A stretch of DNA of 14,352 nucleotides from an uncultured archaeon (GTDB lineage Archaea > Asgardarchaeota > Lokiarchaeia > Sigyniarchaeales > SOKP01): the NCBI GenBank assembly GCA_964583985.1, contig CAZOYD010000041.1:1-14352 (forward strand). Direction: 5' to 3'. Each line of letters starts with the position of its first letter. Positions within the stretch are counted from its first letter, which is position 1. Of this stretch, positions 4,157 to 14,352 are shown piece by piece. The position numbers and the translations under genes were made by a program. Below the pieces are notes generated by a model. That model was given only the letters and a program-made list of their open reading frames with translations, had not been told where the DNA came from and searched no databases.

Positions 4157-4678
4157 ATGAAAACTAATTTTTCTCAAGGAAAAAGTTGGATCGTATCTGC
4201 TATTAGCGATCTGAAAATTGTCGTCAGTAGCATTCAGAATGAATTTTATTCTCTCGTCGCGTTTAGAAGTCAACTTGCTGTAGAAAAATTCAATAAAGCT
4301 ATTTTAAATTTTATGGGATTGAAAGTAGAGAAAACCTATTCTCCAACAGTTATATTGGAAGATTTTCTGAAAAACAAATCTTCTTTAACAATAGCATTAG
4401 ATATAAAAGAAGTAATTAATGATATTATAAAATATTCTAAATTTTTTGAGAATGAAGGGGTTCAAACTCGATACGGAACCTTTAAGAATGATAAATTAAT
4501 CACCGCTGAAGAAATTTATAAATCTTTCGAAGACGTCAAAGATTTTCTGATAAATCTAGAAAGGATATTAAATCTTTATTTAGAACTTTTAAAGAAGAGC
4601 TTAAACCTGACTACTGAAGGATTTAAAGATTTAGGTCAATTAGAATTATTACTCGGAGAATTAAAAAAATGGACTTAA
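4157..4678 (+). CDS. HEPN domain protein (putative toxin of a HEPN-MNT pair), possibly catalytically degenerate
   Basis: HEPN pattern: W..SA..DL, AFRSQLAVEKFNKAIL (cf. FxAQQAxEKxxKA), KTYS (cf. KTHD/N), TRYG (cf. xRYP). It overlaps the downstream nucleotidyltransferase gene by 10 bp. Confidence 0.75.
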   Translation: MKTNFSQGKSWIVSAISDLKIVVSSIQNEFYSLVAFRSQLAVEKFNKAILNFMGLKVEKTYSPTVILEDFLKNKSSLTIALDIKEVINDIIKYSKFFENEGVQTRYGTFKNDKLITAEEIYKSFEDVKDFLINLERILNLYLELLKKSLNLTTEGFKDLGQLELLLGELKKWT

Positions 4679-5157
4679 ATTTAAAGTTTTTAAAGAATGA
4701 ATATTTTTCGATAAAATTGGAGGACTACTTAACTCAAATATTTCAAACAGATAAAAAAATTGCGGGAATTGTTTTATTTGGCTCATTAGCAAGAGGAGAT
4801 GCAATTTATTCAGAAGAAAAGAGAAGTGATATTGATTTAATTATTATTTTTAAAGATAATGAGCTTCCAGAAGATCCTAGAAAAAAGAATGAATTGAAAT
4901 TAAAATTAATGCAACTCACATCCGCAGGAATAGATTCGCTCTGGATGACCGAAAGTGAATTTAAACGTCTTGTTCAAATCAAAACCGATATAATCCTATA
5001 TGCTCTCGATGAATGTAAAATTTTGTATGACCCGACGGGATTGATAAAAGAAGAAAAGGAGCATTTATTCAAAGAGTTAAAAGAAAAGGGCGTTAAAAAG
5101 AAAAAACACTATTGGATTTGGCCGATAAAGAACTTTGGGGAAGAAATCGAATGGTAA
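4669..5157 (+). CDS. Minimal nucleotidyltransferase (MNT, Pol-beta superfamily), putative antitoxin
   Basis: IVLFGSLARGD...SDIDLIII motif, a third Asp in GIDSL, and C-terminal ILYDPTG. GGAG lies upstream of the start, and the gene is translationally coupled to the HEPN gene. Confidence 0.88.
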   Translation: MDLNLKFLKNEYFSIKLEDYLTQIFQTDKKIAGIVLFGSLARGDAIYSEEKRSDIDLIIIFKDNELPEDPRKKNELKLKLMQLTSAGIDSLWMTESEFKRLVQIKTDIILYALDECKILYDPTGLIKEEKEHLFKELKEKGVKKKKHYWIWPIKNFGEEIEW

Positions 5158-5186: not shown

Positions 5187-6068
5187 ATGGTAGAAAAGAA
5201 GAAAATTGTTTTTATTGGGCCTTCTGGTGTGGGAAAGACGACAATAAAGAATGTTTTTTTTGAAATGGCTAATCCCTTTTATCTTTTACAAAATTCTCTT
5301 CCTCCTACAAGAGGCTTTAATACGGTCTCATACCAGTTTCAAGATGATGAAGTCGGTTTATTTGACTTAGCAGGACAAGAGAATGAAAATTGGTTTAATC
5401 AAGATCGAGAAATCTTTGCATATACTGATCTGATAATCTGTGTTTTCGATGTGAATAGTTATTTAAATGATCTCTTCGATTTTATAAAAAAGTTAATGAT
5501 TTTAATCAAGGAAATTGGGTTAGGTACTCTTTCTTTAGCGATCTTGTTACACAAGATAGATTTGACAGAGACGTTATATCTCCAACACAAGGTAAAAGCG
5601 ATTGAAGAATTTGTTGAAAAGGAAGTAACTGGAATTAAGAAAATTTCAATCCATACCACATCAATCTCAAAAGAATACTTCTTAGACACGTATGACAAAA
5701 TGGCAGAAATATTTCTTGATGTATTTCAAGACAAGTTAAATTACAAACAAAAATCCTTTATTCAAGATTTTCGAACGGATATGAGAATCATCCTCAAATA
5801 TGATGATTTAAAAAAACATTCACAAACTGAACTTTTTCATGATTTTAATTTACCATCAAAAGAATCAAGTTTACACCTCTCTAGATTAGAAAAATTAGGA
5901 TTTCTTGAATTCTTAGGGACTAATCAATTTTTTAAGATGACAGAACGCGCGATTTTCATTAAATCAACTATTGATACCTTGAAATTAGATGAAAGAGAAA
6001 GTAAAATTAATAAGGTTCTTGAATTTCTTTATTTATTTTCTAATTTCAAGCTAAAAAGTAATGATTAA
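5187..6068 (+). CDS. Rag/Gtr-like small GTPase with C-terminal winged helix-turn-helix-like domain
   Basis: G1 GPSGVGKTT, G2 PPTRG, G3 DLAGQ, G4 HKID and G5 TTSI; His in G4 and TSI are Rag hallmarks. The C-terminal segment SQTELFHDFNLPSKESSLHLSRLEKLGFLEF...FFKMTERA resembles an ArsR/MarR-type wHTH. Confidence 0.85.
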   Translation: MVEKKKIVFIGPSGVGKTTIKNVFFEMANPFYLLQNSLPPTRGFNTVSYQFQDDEVGLFDLAGQENENWFNQDREIFAYTDLIICVFDVNSYLNDLFDFIKKLMILIKEIGLGTLSLAILLHKIDLTETLYLQHKVKAIEEFVEKEVTGIKKISIHTTSISKEYFLDTYDKMAEIFLDVFQDKLNYKQKSFIQDFRTDMRIILKYDDLKKHSQTELFHDFNLPSKESSLHLSRLEKLGFLEFLGTNQFFKMTERAIFIKSTIDTLKLDERESKINKVLEFLYLFSNFKLKSND

Positions 6069-8576: not shown

Positions 8577-9131
8577 TTATCTTAATCCTGCTTTTGGGGA
8601 TTCTATATTATTTAAAGAAATTTTAGCAAGTAATTCTATAATCATTAATTCGAATACATGGTCTATGTTTAATCCTGTTTTAGAAGATGTTTTTATATTA
8701 GCTATTAATTTATTCTTAAGCATCAAATCAATTGCAACATCGTCATTAATAGTTTCAGGTTCTACCAAGTCATATTTCGTACCAACTAATATAATTGGCA
8801 GATTATTATCTTGAGATCTTACTAAATTTATCCATTCTTCAGCGCTATTAATAGATTTGGGTTCAGTTAAATCAAATAATAAAAGAGCTCCAGAAGCACC
8901 TGTTACATATTTACTGTGTAAAAATCTAAATTGTTTTTGTCCACCAAAATCCCAAAGTTGAAACGATACTTCATAAGTCTCATAAATTAATCGCTTCAAA
9001 TAAAAATCAACTCCAATAGTAATTTTTGGAACATTATAAAATAATCCCTCAACGTATCTTCTCAGAAGAGTAGTTTTTCCTACAAATCCATCTCCTACAG
9101 TAATTATTTTGAATAACACCTGTTTTAACAT
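8577..9131 (-). CDS. Rab-like small GTPase (Ras superfamily)
   Basis: FKIITVGDGFVGKTT, effector TIGVDF, LWDFGGQKQFR, GASGALLLFDLT, G4 GTKYD and G5 KTSSK. A Shine-Dalgarno-like AGGAG lies at 9147-9143. There is no C-terminal cysteine prenylation motif. Confidence 0.9.
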   Translation of the reverse strand: MLKQVLFKIITVGDGFVGKTTLLRRYVEGLFYNVPKITIGVDFYLKRLIYETYEVSFQLWDFGGQKQFRFLHSKYVTGASGALLLFDLTEPKSINSAEEWINLVRSQDNNLPIILVGTKYDLVEPETINDDVAIDLMLKNKLIANIKTSSKTGLNIDHVFELMIIELLAKISLNNIESPKAGLR

Positions 9132-9268: not shown

Positions 9269-10300
9269 TTATATGGTGCTCAATTTTATAGATTTTTCAA
9301 AAAATTCTTTACTTAATGTATCATCTCCAATTTCTAAACAAATATCTGCAATTCTTTCAAATTTTTGAGCTGCTGAATGAAAATCACCATTTTCTAACGC
9401 AATTTGAGCTTCCTTCACTAAACCATCCCTTTCAATAATTGGTTTCAGTAATGGAGAAACTTCAGGGCTCATATCTAAAATATCAGCAATAATTTTAATC
9501 ATCTTTTCGCGATTATTAGGCTCAATCGCAATCATTGAATATGTTTTAACTCCCATTATTCTTTCTATTTCATCAACAGGTACAGAATCGGGTAAATCTT
9601 GTTTATTGCCTATTATCGCTGAATATGCATGAGGAGCTTCCTCACTAATTAATTCTAGGAAGAACTTGCTTTTTTCTAAATTCTCTAAAGTCGAATTGGA
9701 AATCAATAAAACCGCATCACTTCCTTGAATAAATTTGTTCCAAAGAAAACTAAACTGTTCTTGACCTGCAAAATCCCATAATAGGAAAATTAATTTGCCA
9801 ATTTTAACTGTTGCTACTTCACCCGTTATAGTTGGAACGTGCTGTAATGGAATTTCTCTTGCTAATATAAGTTGTGTAATTGTTGTTTTTCCAACTCCTG
9901 AAAATCCTACAAGCGATATTTTTGGTTTTAAATTCCTATGAATTCCATCCATTAATGGATCTAGCAATGTTAGAATCGTATTGTCCAATCCGGAACCAAT
10001 TGATTCTTGAAACAAGTTTAAAAATTCTTTCGCTAATTTCAACAGCTCGGTTCTAATACGAGTAAAATCATCACTCAACCCTGTTACTAAAATGAAAAGC
10101 AATTTTTTTTCGTTATTTGCCAAAAAATTTAATTTAAATTTAAAATAATCCCACGATCCTTGTTCTTCCCCAAGTCGAGAAAATACTGTTTCAATGAGAT
10201 TAGGAAGAATGCTATTTAAATCTTCAATACTTAAAGCTTTACCATATGATCGTTCATAAATAATCTTTCCATCATGAATAATATAAATCTGGCGTAACAT
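9269..10300 (-). CDS. Longin-like domain fused to Arf/Ras-like small GTPase with C-terminal helical hairpin (TPR-like)
   Basis: Start re-called to the ATG at 10300, which has GGAGG upstream and sits 1 bp after the upstream TAA. N-terminal MLRQIYIIHDGKIIYERSY...LLFILVT...LAKEF fits longin topology. The G domain has GFSGVGKTT, PTITG, WDFAGQ and GNKQD. The tail EAQIALENGDFHSAAQKFERIADI is TPR-like. Confidence 0.85.
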   Translation of the reverse strand: MLRQIYIIHDGKIIYERSYGKALSIEDLNSILPNLIETVFSRLGEEQGSWDYFKFKLNFLANNEKKLLFILVTGLSDDFTRIRTELLKLAKEFLNLFQESIGSGLDNTILTLLDPLMDGIHRNLKPKISLVGFSGVGKTTITQLILAREIPLQHVPTITGEVATVKIGKLIFLLWDFAGQEQFSFLWNKFIQGSDAVLLISNSTLENLEKSKFFLELISEEAPHAYSAIIGNKQDLPDSVPVDEIERIMGVKTYSMIAIEPNNREKMIKIIADILDMSPEVSPLLKPIIERDGLVKEAQIALENGDFHSAAQKFERIADICLEIGDDTLSKEFFEKSIKLSTI

Positions 10301-10301
10301 T

Positions 10302-11234
10302 TTATTGATTTCCCTCCGTATCAATAATTTGACTTATATTTTTTAAAAATTCTGACATTACCTCGTTAATTTCCTCCTTTTGAAGATTCTCCGAAAAGAT
10401 ATAAAGCGAACCAAAATCAGGATTATAATCATTTAAATATTCCATTTTCATGCTTAAGATCATTGGACCAGCATCAATAAAACGAAAATCTGTATCTGAT
10501 TTTTTCCCTTTACAGATTCGATTGTAGTGTGCAATCAACACATATATTTGGTAAATAATATCATGATTAAAGTCGGATGACATTGATTGAACAAATATTT
10601 GACCTTGTTTATTTGTGATTAAACAGATCATTTTTGAACTTTCACCAATAATTATATCAATATTGGATTTTAGTTTTTGAGATTCTAAAGAATAGCTACT
10701 TAAGATTTCAGAGAGAGCGTTATAAGATCGATATAATAAATTTGGATAAATACTAGTGAAAAAAATGGATATTTCCTTTGGTAGATCCAACCGATTTTTG
10801 ATTCTCCTTTCTATTCTATTAAAATTAGCGCAGATTTTTTGATTTATTAAATCTATTTTATGAAAGAATATAAAAAAAGTTCCATTTGCATTGAAGTCCT
10901 CGTAAATTCGGATTATTTCTCTGATTTCTTCAATAATTACTTCAGAATTTAAAACCCACCCTTTATAATCTATTATGTATATGATAGCATCAGCATTTCC
11001 AAAAATCTTTTCTTGTTCTTGAGAATCTATTAATAAATTTGATAATTCCTGTCCCGAAGTGTCAAATAATCCTATTTCTAAATCCATCCAAATACATGCT
11101 TTAGGATTTATTCCCCGCGTCGGTTCTAGTGGATGTATCATAAGTTCTTGTGGACTTATTCCTTCAAAAATGAGATTAATTATACTGGATTTTCCAACTC
11201 CTGCTTTTCCTAATAAGGAAATTTTATTTGCCAC
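10302..11234 (-). CDS. Rag/Gtr-like GTPase with probable C-terminal roadblock-like domain
   Basis: KISLLGKAGVGKSS, EPTRG, LFDTSGQ, IFGNADAIIYIID, FFHKIDL and FFTSIY parallel RagA/Gtr1 (IFRNVEVLIYVFD, HKMDL, TSIW). The C-terminal helix followed by ICLITNKQGQIFVQS fits a roadblock fold. The start is GTG. Confidence 0.85.
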   Translation of the reverse strand: MANKISLLGKAGVGKSSIINLIFEGISPQELMIHPLEPTRGINPKACIWMDLEIGLFDTSGQELSNLLIDSQEQEKIFGNADAIIYIIDYKGWVLNSEVIIEEIREIIRIYEDFNANGTFFIFFHKIDLINQKICANFNRIERRIKNRLDLPKEISIFFTSIYPNLLYRSYNALSEILSSYSLESQKLKSNIDIIIGESSKMICLITNKQGQIFVQSMSSDFNHDIIYQIYVLIAHYNRICKGKKSDTDFRFIDAGPMILSMKMEYLNDYNPDFGSLYIFSENLQKEEINEVMSEFLKNISQIIDTEGNQ

Positions 11235-11345
11235 GATAAGATAACCTATTTTTCAGATTTTTAAACTTTTCATGTATTAGGTTTACATATCAAAATTGTA
11301 CTAAAAGTTTAAACAAATTATCTAAAAAATATAAGAAAGTGTGAA

Positions 11346-11500: not shown

Positions 11501-12304
11501 TTATATTATGAAATAATGATCGATAACTTCTTCAAAACTGTAATATCTTGAAATGTCGCCATTTAATTTTTCAACATATTTATTGTAGCGTCTTTGAAAT
11601 TCTAAAGTAATTAATTGCATGTATCTCTTATTGATAATCGATTTTTTATCTTCATCTACTAAATAAGCAAAGATCAAATTATTGATTGAATTAATGTAAA
11701 AATGTCTATTACCAAAATCTATTTCCCTTAACTGTGTATCAGGACCCTTGCCAATTAATTCTCTCGCAAAAGTTAATATTGCTGAAATGAAACCACTAAT
11801 TTGAATTTCATATTGAGCGAAACTAGATTTTTCCTTATTGATTTTAGTAAAAAATGTGTGTCCCGAAGATGCGATTATCAATATTGCTAAAACTCCCTCA
11901 GATTTAGGGACTACTACCAGCTTATTCGCACATTCCTTAATTTCCGATGGATCTTTTAATTTACTAATGCAATTAAATAATTCTTGAGATATTTTTTGCA
12001 ATTTTGAGTAAGCTATTATTTTTTCAGGTTTATCTAAATAAACAAACACGAAAAAATTATTTGATTTTTTAAAAAAGTGAATATAAACAGAAAAATCGCA
12101 GACTAAATCAATTAAAACTCCTGTTTTTTTATTGATTATTTTCTCTTTATGCATGTCAACTATTTTTTCTAATAAAGAATATCCGATGCCAATCTCATGA
12201 TGAATTTTCGTCTTGAAACTGGATTTTTCTTTATAGATTTGTATGATTCCCATTCCAGTAAGAATTAATGGTGATACCATATCTAAACAATTTTCACTTG
12301 ACAT
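11501..12304 (-). CDS. Longin-like domain protein (clear C-terminal domain, probable degenerate N-terminal copy)
   Basis: C-half VLAILIIASSGHTFF...QISGFISAILTFARELIG...LREIDFG...LIFAYLVD...LITLEFQRRY matches the longin/roadblock-type 'SGFxSAI' pattern typical of Asgard proteins. The N-half has a similar strand/helix order (YIHFFKKSNNFFVFVYLD followed by a helix). Confidence 0.7.
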   Translation of the reverse strand: MSSENCLDMVSPLILTGMGIIQIYKEKSSFKTKIHHEIGIGYSLLEKIVDMHKEKIINKKTGVLIDLVCDFSVYIHFFKKSNNFFVFVYLDKPEKIIAYSKLQKISQELFNCISKLKDPSEIKECANKLVVVPKSEGVLAILIIASSGHTFFTKINKEKSSFAQYEIQISGFISAILTFARELIGKGPDTQLREIDFGNRHFYINSINNLIFAYLVDEDKKSIINKRYMQLITLEFQRRYNKYVEKLNGDISRYYSFEEVIDHYFII

Positions 12305-12414: not shown

Positions 12415-14352
12415 TCAGATTTTTTTTGGAATTGCAAAATAGAAAGTACTACCTTTACCAATTTCGCTTTCAAACCAGATCTTCCCCCTATGCAGATTAA
12501 TAATCCGACGTGTTAACGTTAATCCCAATCCAACACCAGGTATTTCATTTTTCGAATAATTCCCTACTCTTACAAATTCTTTAAACACGTGTTCAAAATC
12601 TTTTTCCAAAATCCCCATCCCTGTATCTTCTATTTGAAATTCCCAATTGTCCTTATTTTCAAGGAATCTAAGACAAATCATTCCTTTTTTTGTAAATTTT
12701 ATGGCATTTTCAAGCAAATTTATGAGGACCTGCTTTATTCTTAAGGAATCAGCATATATCATGGTATTTTTCATAATTCCTTCAACTTCAAAGCTAAGAT
12801 TTTTATTTAAATACAAGTGTTTAATGATATTATGAATTTCGTTGAATAAATCATATAAATTGAAATAACTGTAATTTAATTCAAATTTTCCAACTTCAAT
12901 TTGAGAAAAATCCAGAATCGCATCAATTAATTTCTTTAAATCATTTCCAGTTACTAATATATCTTCAAGAAATTCCTTTTGGGTGTCATTTAATTTCCCA
13001 TATGATTCCTCAATCAATAAAGACGTAAATCCTAAAATAGCATTTAGAGGAGTTCTGAGTTCATGAGACATTGTAGCCATGAAGTTTGCTTTAAAGTTTA
13101 TCGTTTGGATAAGATTATCTAGTAAGATCTCCAATTGCTTTTTATCTGCTTTCTTATCCGTTAAATCTAAGATATAAGATTGTATAATTTTAACTTGGTT
13201 TAGTTCTAACCCTAAAGAGGTCAACTCTATATCAAAATGATTTTCCTCCCGATTTAAAAATGATACTTCGATCACTGAAGTTGCATCATCATCATAGGAT
13301 ACTTTTATATAATGTTCTTCTATTAGTTTTTGAGCATTAGGATCAAATAGAGTATAAACTTTCGTTTTCATTAAATCATTTTGATTGATTTTCAATATAT
13401 CAATAGCTTTTTGATTTGCTTTTAAAATTTCTCCGGTTCGCTTGAGTATAATAATCCCTAAAGGAGCCCCTTCGATTAATGCTTCTAGACTACTCAAAGT
13501 ACGTTCCAAATTTTCCATTTCTAACTTGGATTTTTTAATTTCAGTGATATCTTGAAGTAAGATATATATCCAAGTCTTATTTTGCATATTAATCAAGGAA
13601 AAATACATTCTTACCCAAATTTCTAACCCATCCTTTATGGGTAAAGAAAATTCGAGTGATACCATATTAAATCCATTTAAAGTGTCATTTATACATTCAG
13701 CGACATGTTCCTGATTTGCTTTTTTAAATAAAGGGACTTTTGAATAATGTAGATTAATAAATTCATTCTTATGATAAGCTCCTAACTTCATTAATTTGGA
13801 GTTATAATCTAAAACGTTTCCGTTTTTATCTAAAATGATAATAGGATAGGGAGAATTTTCAAATAAATCCCTGTATTTTTGTTCAGAGTAACATAAATTA
13901 TTCTCATAATTTCTGCGTTCGGTAATATCTCGAAATATTAAGAGGAAAGCATTATCGCCTTCCCATTCGATTGTAGTAGTATTTTCCTCCACTATTGAAG
14001 GTTCATTGCCTTCTCGCATTATTCTGATTTCCTTTTTTCCAATTTCTAAAAGGTTTTCATCAATATGTCCAATACATTGATTTGTTTTCCATCCCAAATA
14101 CATTTCAGATCGAAGATTTAGAAACAAGATTTTTCCATTTTGGTTCACAATTGTGATACAGTCTAAAAATTTATCAATTACCTCTTTTAATCGATTTTCT
14201 TTATTCTGATATGTTTTTGCTGAAGTTTCAATTATTTTCTTTATATTATGTCTGTCTATAGCATATATTATAGATCTAATTAACGGATGGGCGTCAATTT
14301 GCCCTTTCACTATATAATCTTGAGCTCCAATATGAACTGCTTTACGTGCTAA
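12415..14352 (-). CDS. Cytoplasmic sensor histidine kinase REC-PAS-PAS-PAS-HisKA-HATPase_c; N-terminus truncated by the window edge
   Basis: The frame stays open to 14352 and reads LARKAVHIGAQDYIVKGQ...LIRSIIYAIDR, the end of a receiver domain, so GTG 14310 is not the start. Three PAS domains end RDIT, QDIT and LDLT. H-box SHELRTPL, N-box NLLENAIKFT, G1 DTGMGI, G2 GVGLGL. No TM segment is visible. Confidence 0.92.
   Translation of the reverse strand, partial: LARKAVHIGAQDYIVKGQIDAHPLIRSIIYAIDRHNIKKIIETSAKTYQNKENRLKEVIDKFLDCITIVNQNGKILFLNLRSEMYLGWKTNQCIGHIDENLLEIGKKEIRIMREGNEPSIVEENTTTIEWEGDNAFLLIFRDITERRNYENNLCYSEQKYRDLFENSPYPIIILDKNGNVLDYNSKLMKLGAYHKNEFINLHYSKVPLFKKANQEHVAECINDTLNGFNMVSLEFSLPIKDGLEIWVRMYFSLINMQNKTWIYILLQDITEIKKSKLEMENLERTLSSLEALIEGAPLGIIILKRTGEILKANQKAIDILKINQNDLMKTKVYTLFDPNAQKLIEEHYIKVSYDDDATSVIEVSFLNREENHFDIELTSLGLELNQVKIIQSYILDLTDKKADKKQLEILLDNLIQTINFKANFMATMSHELRTPLNAILGFTSLLIEESYGKLNDTQKEFLEDILVTGNDLKKLIDAILDFSQIEVGKFELNYSYFNLYDLFNEIHNIIKHLYLNKNLSFEVEGIMKNTMIYADSLRIKQVLINLLENAIKFTKKGMICLRFLENKDNWEFQIEDTGMGILEKDFEHVFKEFVRVGNYSKNEIPGVGLGLTLTRRIINLHRGKIWFESEIGKGSTFYFAIPKKI

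Follow-up and report, generated by a model that had tools for sequence, protein, structure and literature searches.

A conserved gene pair of Lokiarchaeia encodes a roadblock-bearing Rag-like and a longin-bearing Arf-like GTPase

Do two GTPases of different families that are encoded back to back in a lokiarchaeial genome work together, and if they do, is this an early form of the eukaryotic Rag heterodimer? The question arises from a stretch of DNA of 14,352 nucleotides (nt), contig CAZOYD010000041.1 (C41) of a 3.8-Mb lokiarchaeial (Promethearchaeota) metagenome-assembled genome (MAG; about 30% GC), which is called the window in the following. On its minus strand, gene 1 (P0001) codes for a Rag-like GTPase with a roadblock domain and gene 2 (P0002) for an Arf-like GTPase with a longin domain (longin-Arf). 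The original prediction, made from the letters of the window, had described the two as a translationally coupled pair and a possible proto-Rag heterodimer. Its observation is confirmed and its interpretation is partly supported. The Rag-like and longin-Arf genes form a conserved two-gene module of Lokiarchaeia, in which they are adjacent on the same strand in two deep lineages. This conserved pairing across two GTPase families is new; both protein architectures had already been published between 2016 and 2024. We give about an even chance to the reading that the two genes are co-transcribed and that their products act together, most likely as a physical complex. The two genes and the signals around them are:

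10302..11234, minus strand: Rag/Gtr-family GTPase gene P0001, 310 amino acids (aa), GTG start at 11234, TAA stop at 10304-10302
9269..10300, minus strand: longin / Arf-like GTPase / TPR-like tail gene P0002, 343 aa, ATG start at 10300, TAA stop at 9271-9269
10298..10304, minus strand: stop-start junction TAAAATG with a spacer of 1 nt (A, 10301), read from the sequence
10313..10317, minus strand: GGAGG Shine-Dalgarno (SD)-like motif 12 nt 5' of the P0002 ATG, within the P0001 open reading frame (ORF)
11258..11265, minus strand: TATA-like box TTTAAAAA, about 27 nt upstream of the P0001 GTG, read from the sequence

The junction is built as predicted, with the TAA, a single A and the ATG following one another on the minus strand and the GGAGG lying inside the upstream gene. 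The database gene call for gene 2 (P0003) uses an earlier TTG at 10324. Because homologous N-termini begin with MLR (M1-L2-R3 conserved to at least 90% in an alignment of 40 homologs), we regard the ATG at 10300 as the true start. The GTG start of gene 1 agrees with the homolog consensus MAxKIxLIG, and inspection of the sequence before it revealed no SD motif. GGAGG occurs 20 times on both strands of the window versus 9.7 expected, and the chance of finding one within 15 nt of a given start is therefore about 1%. GGAG-type motifs lie 10-12 nt upstream of three of the 12 starts in the window, namely gene 2, a nucleotidyltransferase gene (4669) and a Ras-like gene (9131), and two of these, gene 2 and the nucleotidyltransferase gene behind a HEPN gene, are second genes of tight pairs. 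Judged by archaeal promoter geometry, TTTAAAAA would serve as a promoter giving a leaderless or near-leaderless bicistronic mRNA.

Motifs, sequence comparison and an AlphaFold2 (AF2) model agree on the nature of gene 1, which is predicted to encode a catalytically intact and active GTPase of the Rag/Gtr family with a C-terminal roadblock domain, as had been proposed. Its parts are:

10695..11234, minus strand: Rag-type G domain, residues 1-180, with P-loop GKAGVGKS, T39, DTSGQE and TSI
10851..10862, minus strand: G4 motif HKID (H125-D128), the Rag-type variant of NKxD
10305..10694, minus strand: C-terminal roadblock domain, residues 181-310, from the AF2 model

The protein matches positions 1-219 of the 232 in the Pfam profile Gtr1_RagA (PF04670) with 92 bits, the cut-off being 22. 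Its best sequence match in the PDB is human RagA (E 2e-9), followed by Gtr1, RagC/D and Gtr2, and its HKID aligns to HKMD of RagA. G9/G14/K15, T39, D58/G61/Q62, H125, K126, D128 and TSI are invariant among 42 homologs. The best-matching homologs are 37-48% identical, a lower conservation than that of P0002. In the AF2 model (predicted local distance difference test, pLDDT, 86; predicted TM score, pTM, 0.85), residues 183-308 adopt the topology alpha-beta-beta-alpha-beta-beta-beta-alpha, and the top Foldseek matches of the whole model are full-length RagA, Gtr1 and RagC. By VIA, the G domain aligns to that of RagD with Z 21.2 (root-mean-square deviation, rmsd, 2.1; 166 residues aligned). Both domains together align to LokiRagO (8yl2, Z 20.2, 282 residues), to which P0001 is 18% identical, as well as to RagC (6nzd_G, Z 19.1, 279 residues) and Gtr2 (Z 17.5). 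The SRbeta structures 1nrj_B and 2fh5_B are among the fold matches of the G domain.

Gene 2 likewise carries the motifs of a GTPase that is predicted to be catalytically intact and active, in this case Arf-like, with a longin domain at the N-terminus and a TPR-like tail. Longin and G domain, the two parts named in the original prediction, are both recovered by fold; the conserved tail had been missed. The domains of gene 2 are:

9929..10300, minus strand: N-terminal longin domain, residues 1-124, from the AF2 model and VIA
9461..9928, minus strand: Arf-like G domain, residues 125-280, with GFSGVGKT, T157 and WDFAGQ (175-180)
9596..9607, minus strand: G4 motif NKQD (residues 232-235)
9272..9445, minus strand: three-helix TPR-like tail, residues 286-343, from the AF2 model and a weak TPR_8 match

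Residues 123-254 match Pfam Arf with E 2e-17 (63.7 bits versus 51.5 for Roc and 48.4 for Ras), and the top 30 or so Foldseek matches of the G domain are Arf1/Arf and Arl proteins. By VIA, the G domain aligns to Arf1 with Z 15.4 and to SRbeta (2fh5_B) with Z 12.5; HodArfR1 (8oul) reaches Z 13.2, which is not above many Rabs. The N-terminal amphipathic helix of Arf proteins, which in eukaryotes goes along with a myristoylated Gly2, is absent. Since the N-terminus is instead occupied by the 124-residue longin domain, which starts with MLRQ, the protein is Arf-like and not a canonical Arf. GFSGVGKT, T157, WDFAGQ and NKQD are invariant apart from a variable position in 41 homologs. The G4 motifs that had been used to assign the two proteins to different subfamilies, HKID and NKQD, are thus both present and invariant in the respective homologs.

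A longin-domain profile compared with PDB sequences gave nothing relevant, so that the longin fold is established structurally. Residues 1-124 have the topology beta-beta-alpha-beta-beta-beta-alpha-alpha (DSSP of the AF2 model) and align by VIA to the VAMP7 longin with Z 14.6 (rmsd 2.4, 117 residues aligned), followed by Sec22 (13.8), synbindin (13.5), Fuzzy (13.1) and the small and medium subunits of AP2, AP3 and COPI (12.5-12.8; AP2 12.8). All of these matches cover model residues 1 to about 126. P0002 itself does not match Pfam Longin (PF13774), which is the sole family matched repeatedly by the N-domains of its homologs (12 of 41, best E 9e-4, all below the cut-off). A look-up of the longin part by features in the ESM Atlas returned no usable match. 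In a shape search of the same atlas, matches to the whole architecture came only from Promethearchaeota and Thorarchaeota. The tail helices (286-303, 307-324 and 327-341) are modelled with pLDDT 80-94, and F314, C321, G325, D326 and K336 in this region are invariant in homologs. More than 1,100 homologs of P0002 were found, named as Promethearchaeota, Thor- and Hodarchaeota, of which the best 120 are 56-73% identical. The mirrored architectures of the original prediction, G domain and roadblock versus longin and G domain, are thereby borne out on the AF2 models.

Is the neighbourhood of the two genes more than an accident of this contig? Several of the database matches to the two proteins lie on common contigs. 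Scanning species-representative genomes with the Rag-like alignment yielded 46 loci, annotated by ORF, BLAST and hidden Markov model (HMM) and numbered with the prefix L. In 15 of the 19 assessable genes of about 300-320 aa with G and roadblock domains, a longin-Arf gene of 343-350 aa comes next on the same strand, 9-54 nt later. Further paired loci are L017, L021 and L024. Counted without redundancy, the Rag-like gene lies upstream of a longin-Arf gene in 19 loci besides the window. In L024, the order is reversed, and longin-Arf and Rag-like gene abut with an identical TAAAATG junction. The pairs fall into two deep lineages, between which the Rag-like proteins are about 35% identical (33-38%). 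On the Rag-like tree, the label 'paired' needs four changes versus a mean of 13.4 after shuffling, and none of 500 shuffles was as low. The Rag-like gene of the window belongs to a supported clade of seven rows, six of them paired, and the longin-Arf tree shows sub-clades that match the Rag-like tree. Of four unpaired short Rag-like genes, three form a separate well-supported paralog clade and one (L029) falls inside the clade of the window.

Adjacency through deep divergence, one reversal and congruent trees argue that the two genes do not assort independently. They also bear on the simplest alternative, in which the genes are mere neighbours among the many paralogous small GTPases of Lokiarchaeia and are passed on together by chance. 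Lokiarchaeial genomes do contain dozens of small GTPases, often clustered, with four in the window alone, and the linkage is broken in some genomes. However, the same-strand spacing of 1-54 nt has been kept in both lineages despite their divergence, the genes are adjacent again where their order is reversed, the trees are congruent and the paired label is strongly clustered. We therefore consider chance adjacency very improbable.

A second line of evidence comes from the paralogs of gene 2. A longin-Arf gene is present in all 24 sampled genomes of the lokiarchaeial family, and most of the best matches lie in open frames of about 560-780 aa. Open frames of about 580-700 aa in relatives were considered as fusions with a Rag protein and rejected; they represent a paralog of about 620-660 aa with a long C-terminal low-complexity tail. 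In five of five loci examined (L001-L004 and L007; e.g. L004 1175-1669 and 1-1135), a 163-aa gene lies 34-59 nt upstream of this long-tailed paralog. A comparison of the 163-aa family with the roadblock alignment of the Rag-like proteins by hhalign gave no signal; a wider profile of the family (21 members) hits the solved Roadblock/LC7 protein 7yh1 with E 3.2e-5 and a second one with E 0.11. Directly upstream of the longin-Arf gene of L024 lies a roadblock-only ORF (2543-2914, 123 aa, roadblock HMM 2e-26), which looks as if it had arisen from a Rag-like duplication, as a remnant or an offshoot. Longin-Arf genes are thus regularly preceded by a roadblock-encoding gene, whether the roadblock stands by itself or follows a Rag G domain in the same protein, and the roadblock is therefore favoured as the functional partner of the longin-GTPase. 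The long-tailed paralog locus is also flanked by a conserved divergent gene of about 262 aa and a gene for a membrane protein of about 500 aa.

Several findings weigh against a joint function of the two proteins as a complex. The closest ortholog of the longin-Arf gene (73% identical, L018-20) resides in the same neighbourhood, but only 28 nt separate it from a 269-aa gene upstream of it, and a Rag-like gene is missing there. Genome G151 has Rag-like and longin-Arf genes of the window type on different contigs, and it retains an intact pair of the second lineage. The cultured P. syntrophicum MK-D1 lacks a close Rag-like ortholog of this class, and its only longin-Arf protein is the long-tailed paralog. 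The lack of the pair in this strain is probably why Tran et al. (2024) missed the pairing. No fused Rag-like/longin-Arf protein above 543 aa was found, in a search that is weak evidence. The SD motif and the 1-nt spacing are not conserved across pairs, whose gaps are mostly 21-54 nt, and one pair lineage has TTTATA in the spacer, which could be an internal promoter. Judging by their PDB titles, the solved Loki Rag-like proteins are homotetrameric (8yl2) or monomeric (8zla and 9m28), which means that a Rag-like protein of Asgard archaea does not necessarily require a hetero-partner; no paper on these three entries was found. To our knowledge, no heterotypic roadblock-longin dimer has been described. 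A complex prediction with full-length P0001 and P0002, each supplied with its alignment, scored 0.06 versus a mark of 0.32 and counts neither for nor against binding.

Two claims of the original prediction have to be narrowed accordingly. Translational coupling is plausible at this locus, whereas neither a conserved SD motif nor coupling holds as a trait of the family, since a GGAG-type motif was found in only about one third of the pairs and most gaps measure 21-54 nt. Conservation of the pair holds for two lineages with congruent trees and is not obligatory, as L018-20 without a Rag-like gene, the separated genes of G151 and the situation in MK-D1 demonstrate. The pairing is confined to part of Lokiarchaeia: beside the longin-Arf genes of other Asgard families (L071-L080), which encode proteins of about 285 aa without the TPR-like tail, no Rag-like partner was found. 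In six of these ten loci, a gene for a 360-400-aa protein immediately precedes the longin-Arf gene, and four of the six proteins have weak winged-helix (TrmB/ArsR-like) matches near residues 270-340. This winged helix-turn-helix-like protein may be a different conserved partner of longin-Arf in the other families.

How close is the pair to the eukaryotic Rags (RagA/B-RagC/D; Gtr1-Gtr2)? Gene 1 shares with them the HKxD G4 motif, an extended switch II and the TSI G5 motif followed by a roadblock domain, and it can be aligned to RagC, RagA, Gtr1 and Gtr2 over about 280 residues. In addition, a second GTPase with a platform domain of related fold is co-encoded. In contrast to the Rags, the putative second subunit is Arf-like, bears an N-terminal longin instead of a C-terminal roadblock domain and has a TPR-like tail; neither Ragulator nor a TOR context is present here. 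The term 'proto-Rag heterodimer' is not supported: the partner is not a Rag paralog and carries longin in place of roadblock, and a Rag-Rag operon exists in the same genome.

This operon (G000:C42:25402-26936; L008 1519-4349) consists of a 439-aa gene (extension, Rag G domain and roadblock) overlapping the gene of a 504-aa Rag G protein. It represents a second Rag-like class, in which genes of about 430-460 aa with an N-terminal extension before G and roadblock domains are followed by a Rag-like gene of about 510 aa, and operons of this type were seen in about 20 related loci. The C42 operon is a better candidate for an analogue of the Rag heterodimer than the Rag-like/longin-Arf pair. In MK-D1, a Rag-Rag operon was described whose products are predicted to form a heterodimer through their roadblock domains (Tran et al. 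2024, PMC10933270). The same study reported GTPases fused to longin and/or roadblock domains and stated that the GTPase genes of this strain as a rule do not share operons with roadblock or longin genes. The gene 1 protein thus shares its family, the architecture of G and roadblock domain and the idea of an operon pair with the Asgard Rag-like proteins known so far (the MK-D1 pair, LokiRagO 8yl2, LokiRagM 8zla and 9m28). Whereas the MK-D1 pair combines two Rag-like proteins, the pair of the window combines a Rag-like with a longin-Arf protein and is missing from MK-D1.

In its strict form, the heterodimer idea holds that the two proteins are an obligate Rag-style 1:1 complex joined by beta-sheet pairing of roadblock and longin domains, an ancestor-like form of RagA/B-RagC/D. 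The mirrored architectures with related alpha/beta platform folds, the tight stop-start junction, the conserved pairing of both genes and the roadblock-encoding gene that always precedes the longin-Arf paralogs examined speak in its favour. However, the partner is Arf-like, dimers of this heterotypic kind are not known to us, the linkage has been lost in some genomes, and the Rag-like/Rag-like operon at C42 matches the published MK-D1 candidate for the Rag-heterodimer analogue (PMC10933270). Moreover, the divergence of roadblock and longin domains does not co-vary once the G domains are controlled for (partial rho -0.05, 19 pairs; the roadblock distances are saturated). An obligate heterodimer of this kind is in our view unlikely, and the same holds for its extension to a stable roadblock-longin heterodimer of a Rag- and an Arf-family protein that forms a two-nucleotide switch wired to the PAS sensor kinase encoded nearby.

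The roadblock-longin value stems from a domain-wise (mirror-tree) comparison of distances in 19 paired loci and a non-redundant set of 12 loci. In this comparison, longin divergence tracked that of the Rag G domain best (Spearman 0.67, 12 loci), above any pair of domains within one protein, and the relation persisted given the Arf G and roadblock domains (partial rho 0.55, permutation p 0.0005). The result is to be read as a hint only, because it is confounded by phylogeny, by rate class and by the saturation of the roadblock distances. It points to a regulator-substrate relation, in which the longin domain of gene 2 would act on the Rag-like G domain as GTPase-activating protein (GAP), guanine nucleotide exchange factor (GEF) or effector platform. 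The roadblock may in turn act on the G domain of the Arf-like protein, and the two proteins might each form homodimers. The longins of FLCN and Nprl2 act on Rags, longin GAPs for Rag GTPases are established and SRX reads SRbeta. Asgard longins with GAP-like motifs have been described (PMC12290439), and the Loki Rag-like GTPase 8yl2 crystallised, by its title, as a homotetramer. On the other hand, the shared phylogeny and the similar rates of the two domains confound the mirror-tree signal, and the longin has no obvious conserved GAP arginine: R3 of MLRQ was considered as an arginine finger and rejected as a general feature, being H in several other Asgard families. A regulator-substrate relation is thus a tentative reading, to which we attach slightly more weight than to the obligate heterodimer and clearly less than to the complex.

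The genes around the pair offer yet another arrangement. On the same strand are:

8577..9131, minus strand: Ras/Rab-like small GTPase, 184 aa, 137 nt downstream of P0002 (Pfam Ras E 1.5e-36)
11501..12304, minus strand: 267-aa protein without a Pfam family, whose C-terminal half is a longin domain
12415..14352, minus strand: PAS-PAS-HisKA-HATPase sensor kinase (Pfam), running off the window end

The Ras-like gene has its own TATA-like box and GGAG; its ortholog follows the pair in L021, L025 and L024 and the longin-Arf gene in L018-20. In the 267-aa protein, residues 141-263 (nt 11516-11884) were recognised as a longin domain with an HMM built on the longins of distant longin-Arf proteins (38 bits, E 5e-13). 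It was this wider profile that gave the signal; comparison of the 267-aa family with the lokiarchaeial longin alignment by hhalign gave none. The 267/269-aa gene is syntenic in L018-L027 and L065. Orthologs of the sensor kinase measure 742-751 aa, have an N-terminal receiver domain and occupy the same position in L018-L023. Fetched contigs of L021 and L022 show the full cluster in the order kinase, 269-aa protein, Rag-like, longin-Arf and Ras-like. A cluster of 269-aa protein, Rag-like, longin-Arf and Ras-like genes, 47% and 63% identical to the window, also occurs in L025 (DATKTW010000113.1), a contig filed under a 'Candidatus Nanopelagicaceae bacterium' MAG, probably a case of misbinning in the public record.

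The core of the system might accordingly be formed by two longins, that of the 267-aa protein and that of the longin-Arf protein, like Mon1-Ccz1 or Nprl2-Nprl3, as a platform for the Ras-like or Rag-like GTPase, the Rag-like gene being an accessory insertion. The 267-aa protein carries a longin of the same type as its C-terminal half, synteny of its gene and the Ras-like gene is seen at several loci, and in the closest relative the 267-aa ortholog directly precedes the longin-Arf gene. Yet the 267-aa gene is limited to one pair sub-lineage and absent from L017, L028-L063 and L024, and the adjacency of Rag-like and longin-Arf genes reaches far wider. In the window, moreover, 266 nt with T-runs and a TATA-like box separate the 267-aa gene from the Rag-like gene. 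A longin-longin core appears improbable to us, less so than chance adjacency.

A direct complex of the Rag-like and longin-Arf proteins is the reading we consider most likely, with a slight lean towards its being correct. Roadblock and longin domains dimerise and act as platforms for small GTPases. Examples are RagA-RagC, Ragulator, MglB-MglA, SRX-SRbeta, Nprl2-Nprl3 and Mon1-Ccz1 (Levine et al. 2013, PMC3747258). In the scheme that we propose, a single promoter upstream of gene 1 would give one mRNA for both genes, and at TAAAATG gene 2 would be translated by re-initiation or from the internal SD motif, yielding near-equimolar products. Within the complex, the roadblock domain of gene 1 would be the partner of the longin-GTPase. 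It might pair with the longin domain, resulting in a platform of the roadblock/longin type, or sit on the G domain of the Arf-like protein in the way MglB docks on MglA. In either case the nucleotide state of one GTPase could be read or set by the other. The PAS sensor kinase, the longin-containing 267-aa protein and the Ras-like GTPase would probably provide input and further components.

Other systems resemble the pair in part. The signal recognition particle (SRP) receptor, composed of SRalpha with its SRX longin and SRbeta, also combines a longin with an Arf-family G domain. In contrast to the receptor, longin and GTPase reside here in one chain; an NG domain of the SRP type and a transmembrane anchor are lacking, as is any link to translocation genes. 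In MglA-MglB of Myxococcus and the actinobacterial conservon, a roadblock partner is encoded next to a small GTPase. A roadblock-encoding gene directly upstream of a small-GTPase gene is also seen in the pair of the window and in the paralogous locus with the stand-alone roadblock protein. Here, however, the roadblock is fused to a Rag-type GTPase, and the client GTPase is Arf-like with a longin. Longin-GTPase-roadblock proteins are a published architecture. For Lokiarchaeum, Klinger et al. (2016; summarised in Dey et al. 2016, PMC4917890) had reported Rag-like GTPases fused to roadblock domains and five Arf-like GTPases fused to longin domains, and longin-GTPase fusions are also described in a preprint (Liu et al. 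2020, 10.1101/2020.10.19.343400). The published lokiarchaeal longin-Arf fusions have exactly the architecture of gene 2; in the parts consulted, those reports present the fusion without a conserved gene partner, to which our analysis adds the TPR-like tail and the upstream roadblock gene. A conserved Rag-like/longin-Arf gene pair is not described in the literature searched.

Two further elements of the window lie apart from the pair on the plus strand. At 5187-6068, a 293-aa protein has a second Rag-type G domain (Gtr1_RagA 2.9e-12, Rag G HMM 1e-31), and its C-terminal part is not roadblock by HMM; L013 has a similar gene of 290 aa close to a Rag-like gene. At 4157-5157, genes for a HEPN protein (173 aa) and a nucleotidyltransferase (162 aa) overlap by 10 nt, with GGAG before the second start. 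This HEPN/nucleotidyltransferase pair also occurs near the GTPase cluster in L022.

The reach of the finding is limited to part of Lokiarchaeia, with a linkage that is dispensable and absent from MK-D1, and the pair is not evidently on the line to the eukaryotic Rags. Within this group, it addresses a recurrent difficulty: in Asgard genomes, small GTPases number in the dozens, as do longin and roadblock proteins. Which GTPase goes with which platform protein is rarely revealed by genome layout (Tran et al. 2024, PMC10933270). The conserved pair and the pair of stand-alone roadblock protein and long-tailed paralog provide matched partners for expression and assay; the former also has a longin protein, a Ras-like GTPase and a sensor kinase encoded around it. 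If binding proves true, the pair would represent a variant of the Rag design that crosses GTPase families, and it would bear on the pre-eukaryotic diversification of GTPase switches with platform domains. If, beyond this, the two proteins were stably joined through roadblock and longin, theirs would be the first heterotypic dimer of these two domains and the first Rag-type dimer of GTPases from two families. It would then also mean that Asgard archaea were already recombining the design of two GTPases on a platform dimer before the Rag-Rag form became fixed in eukaryotes.

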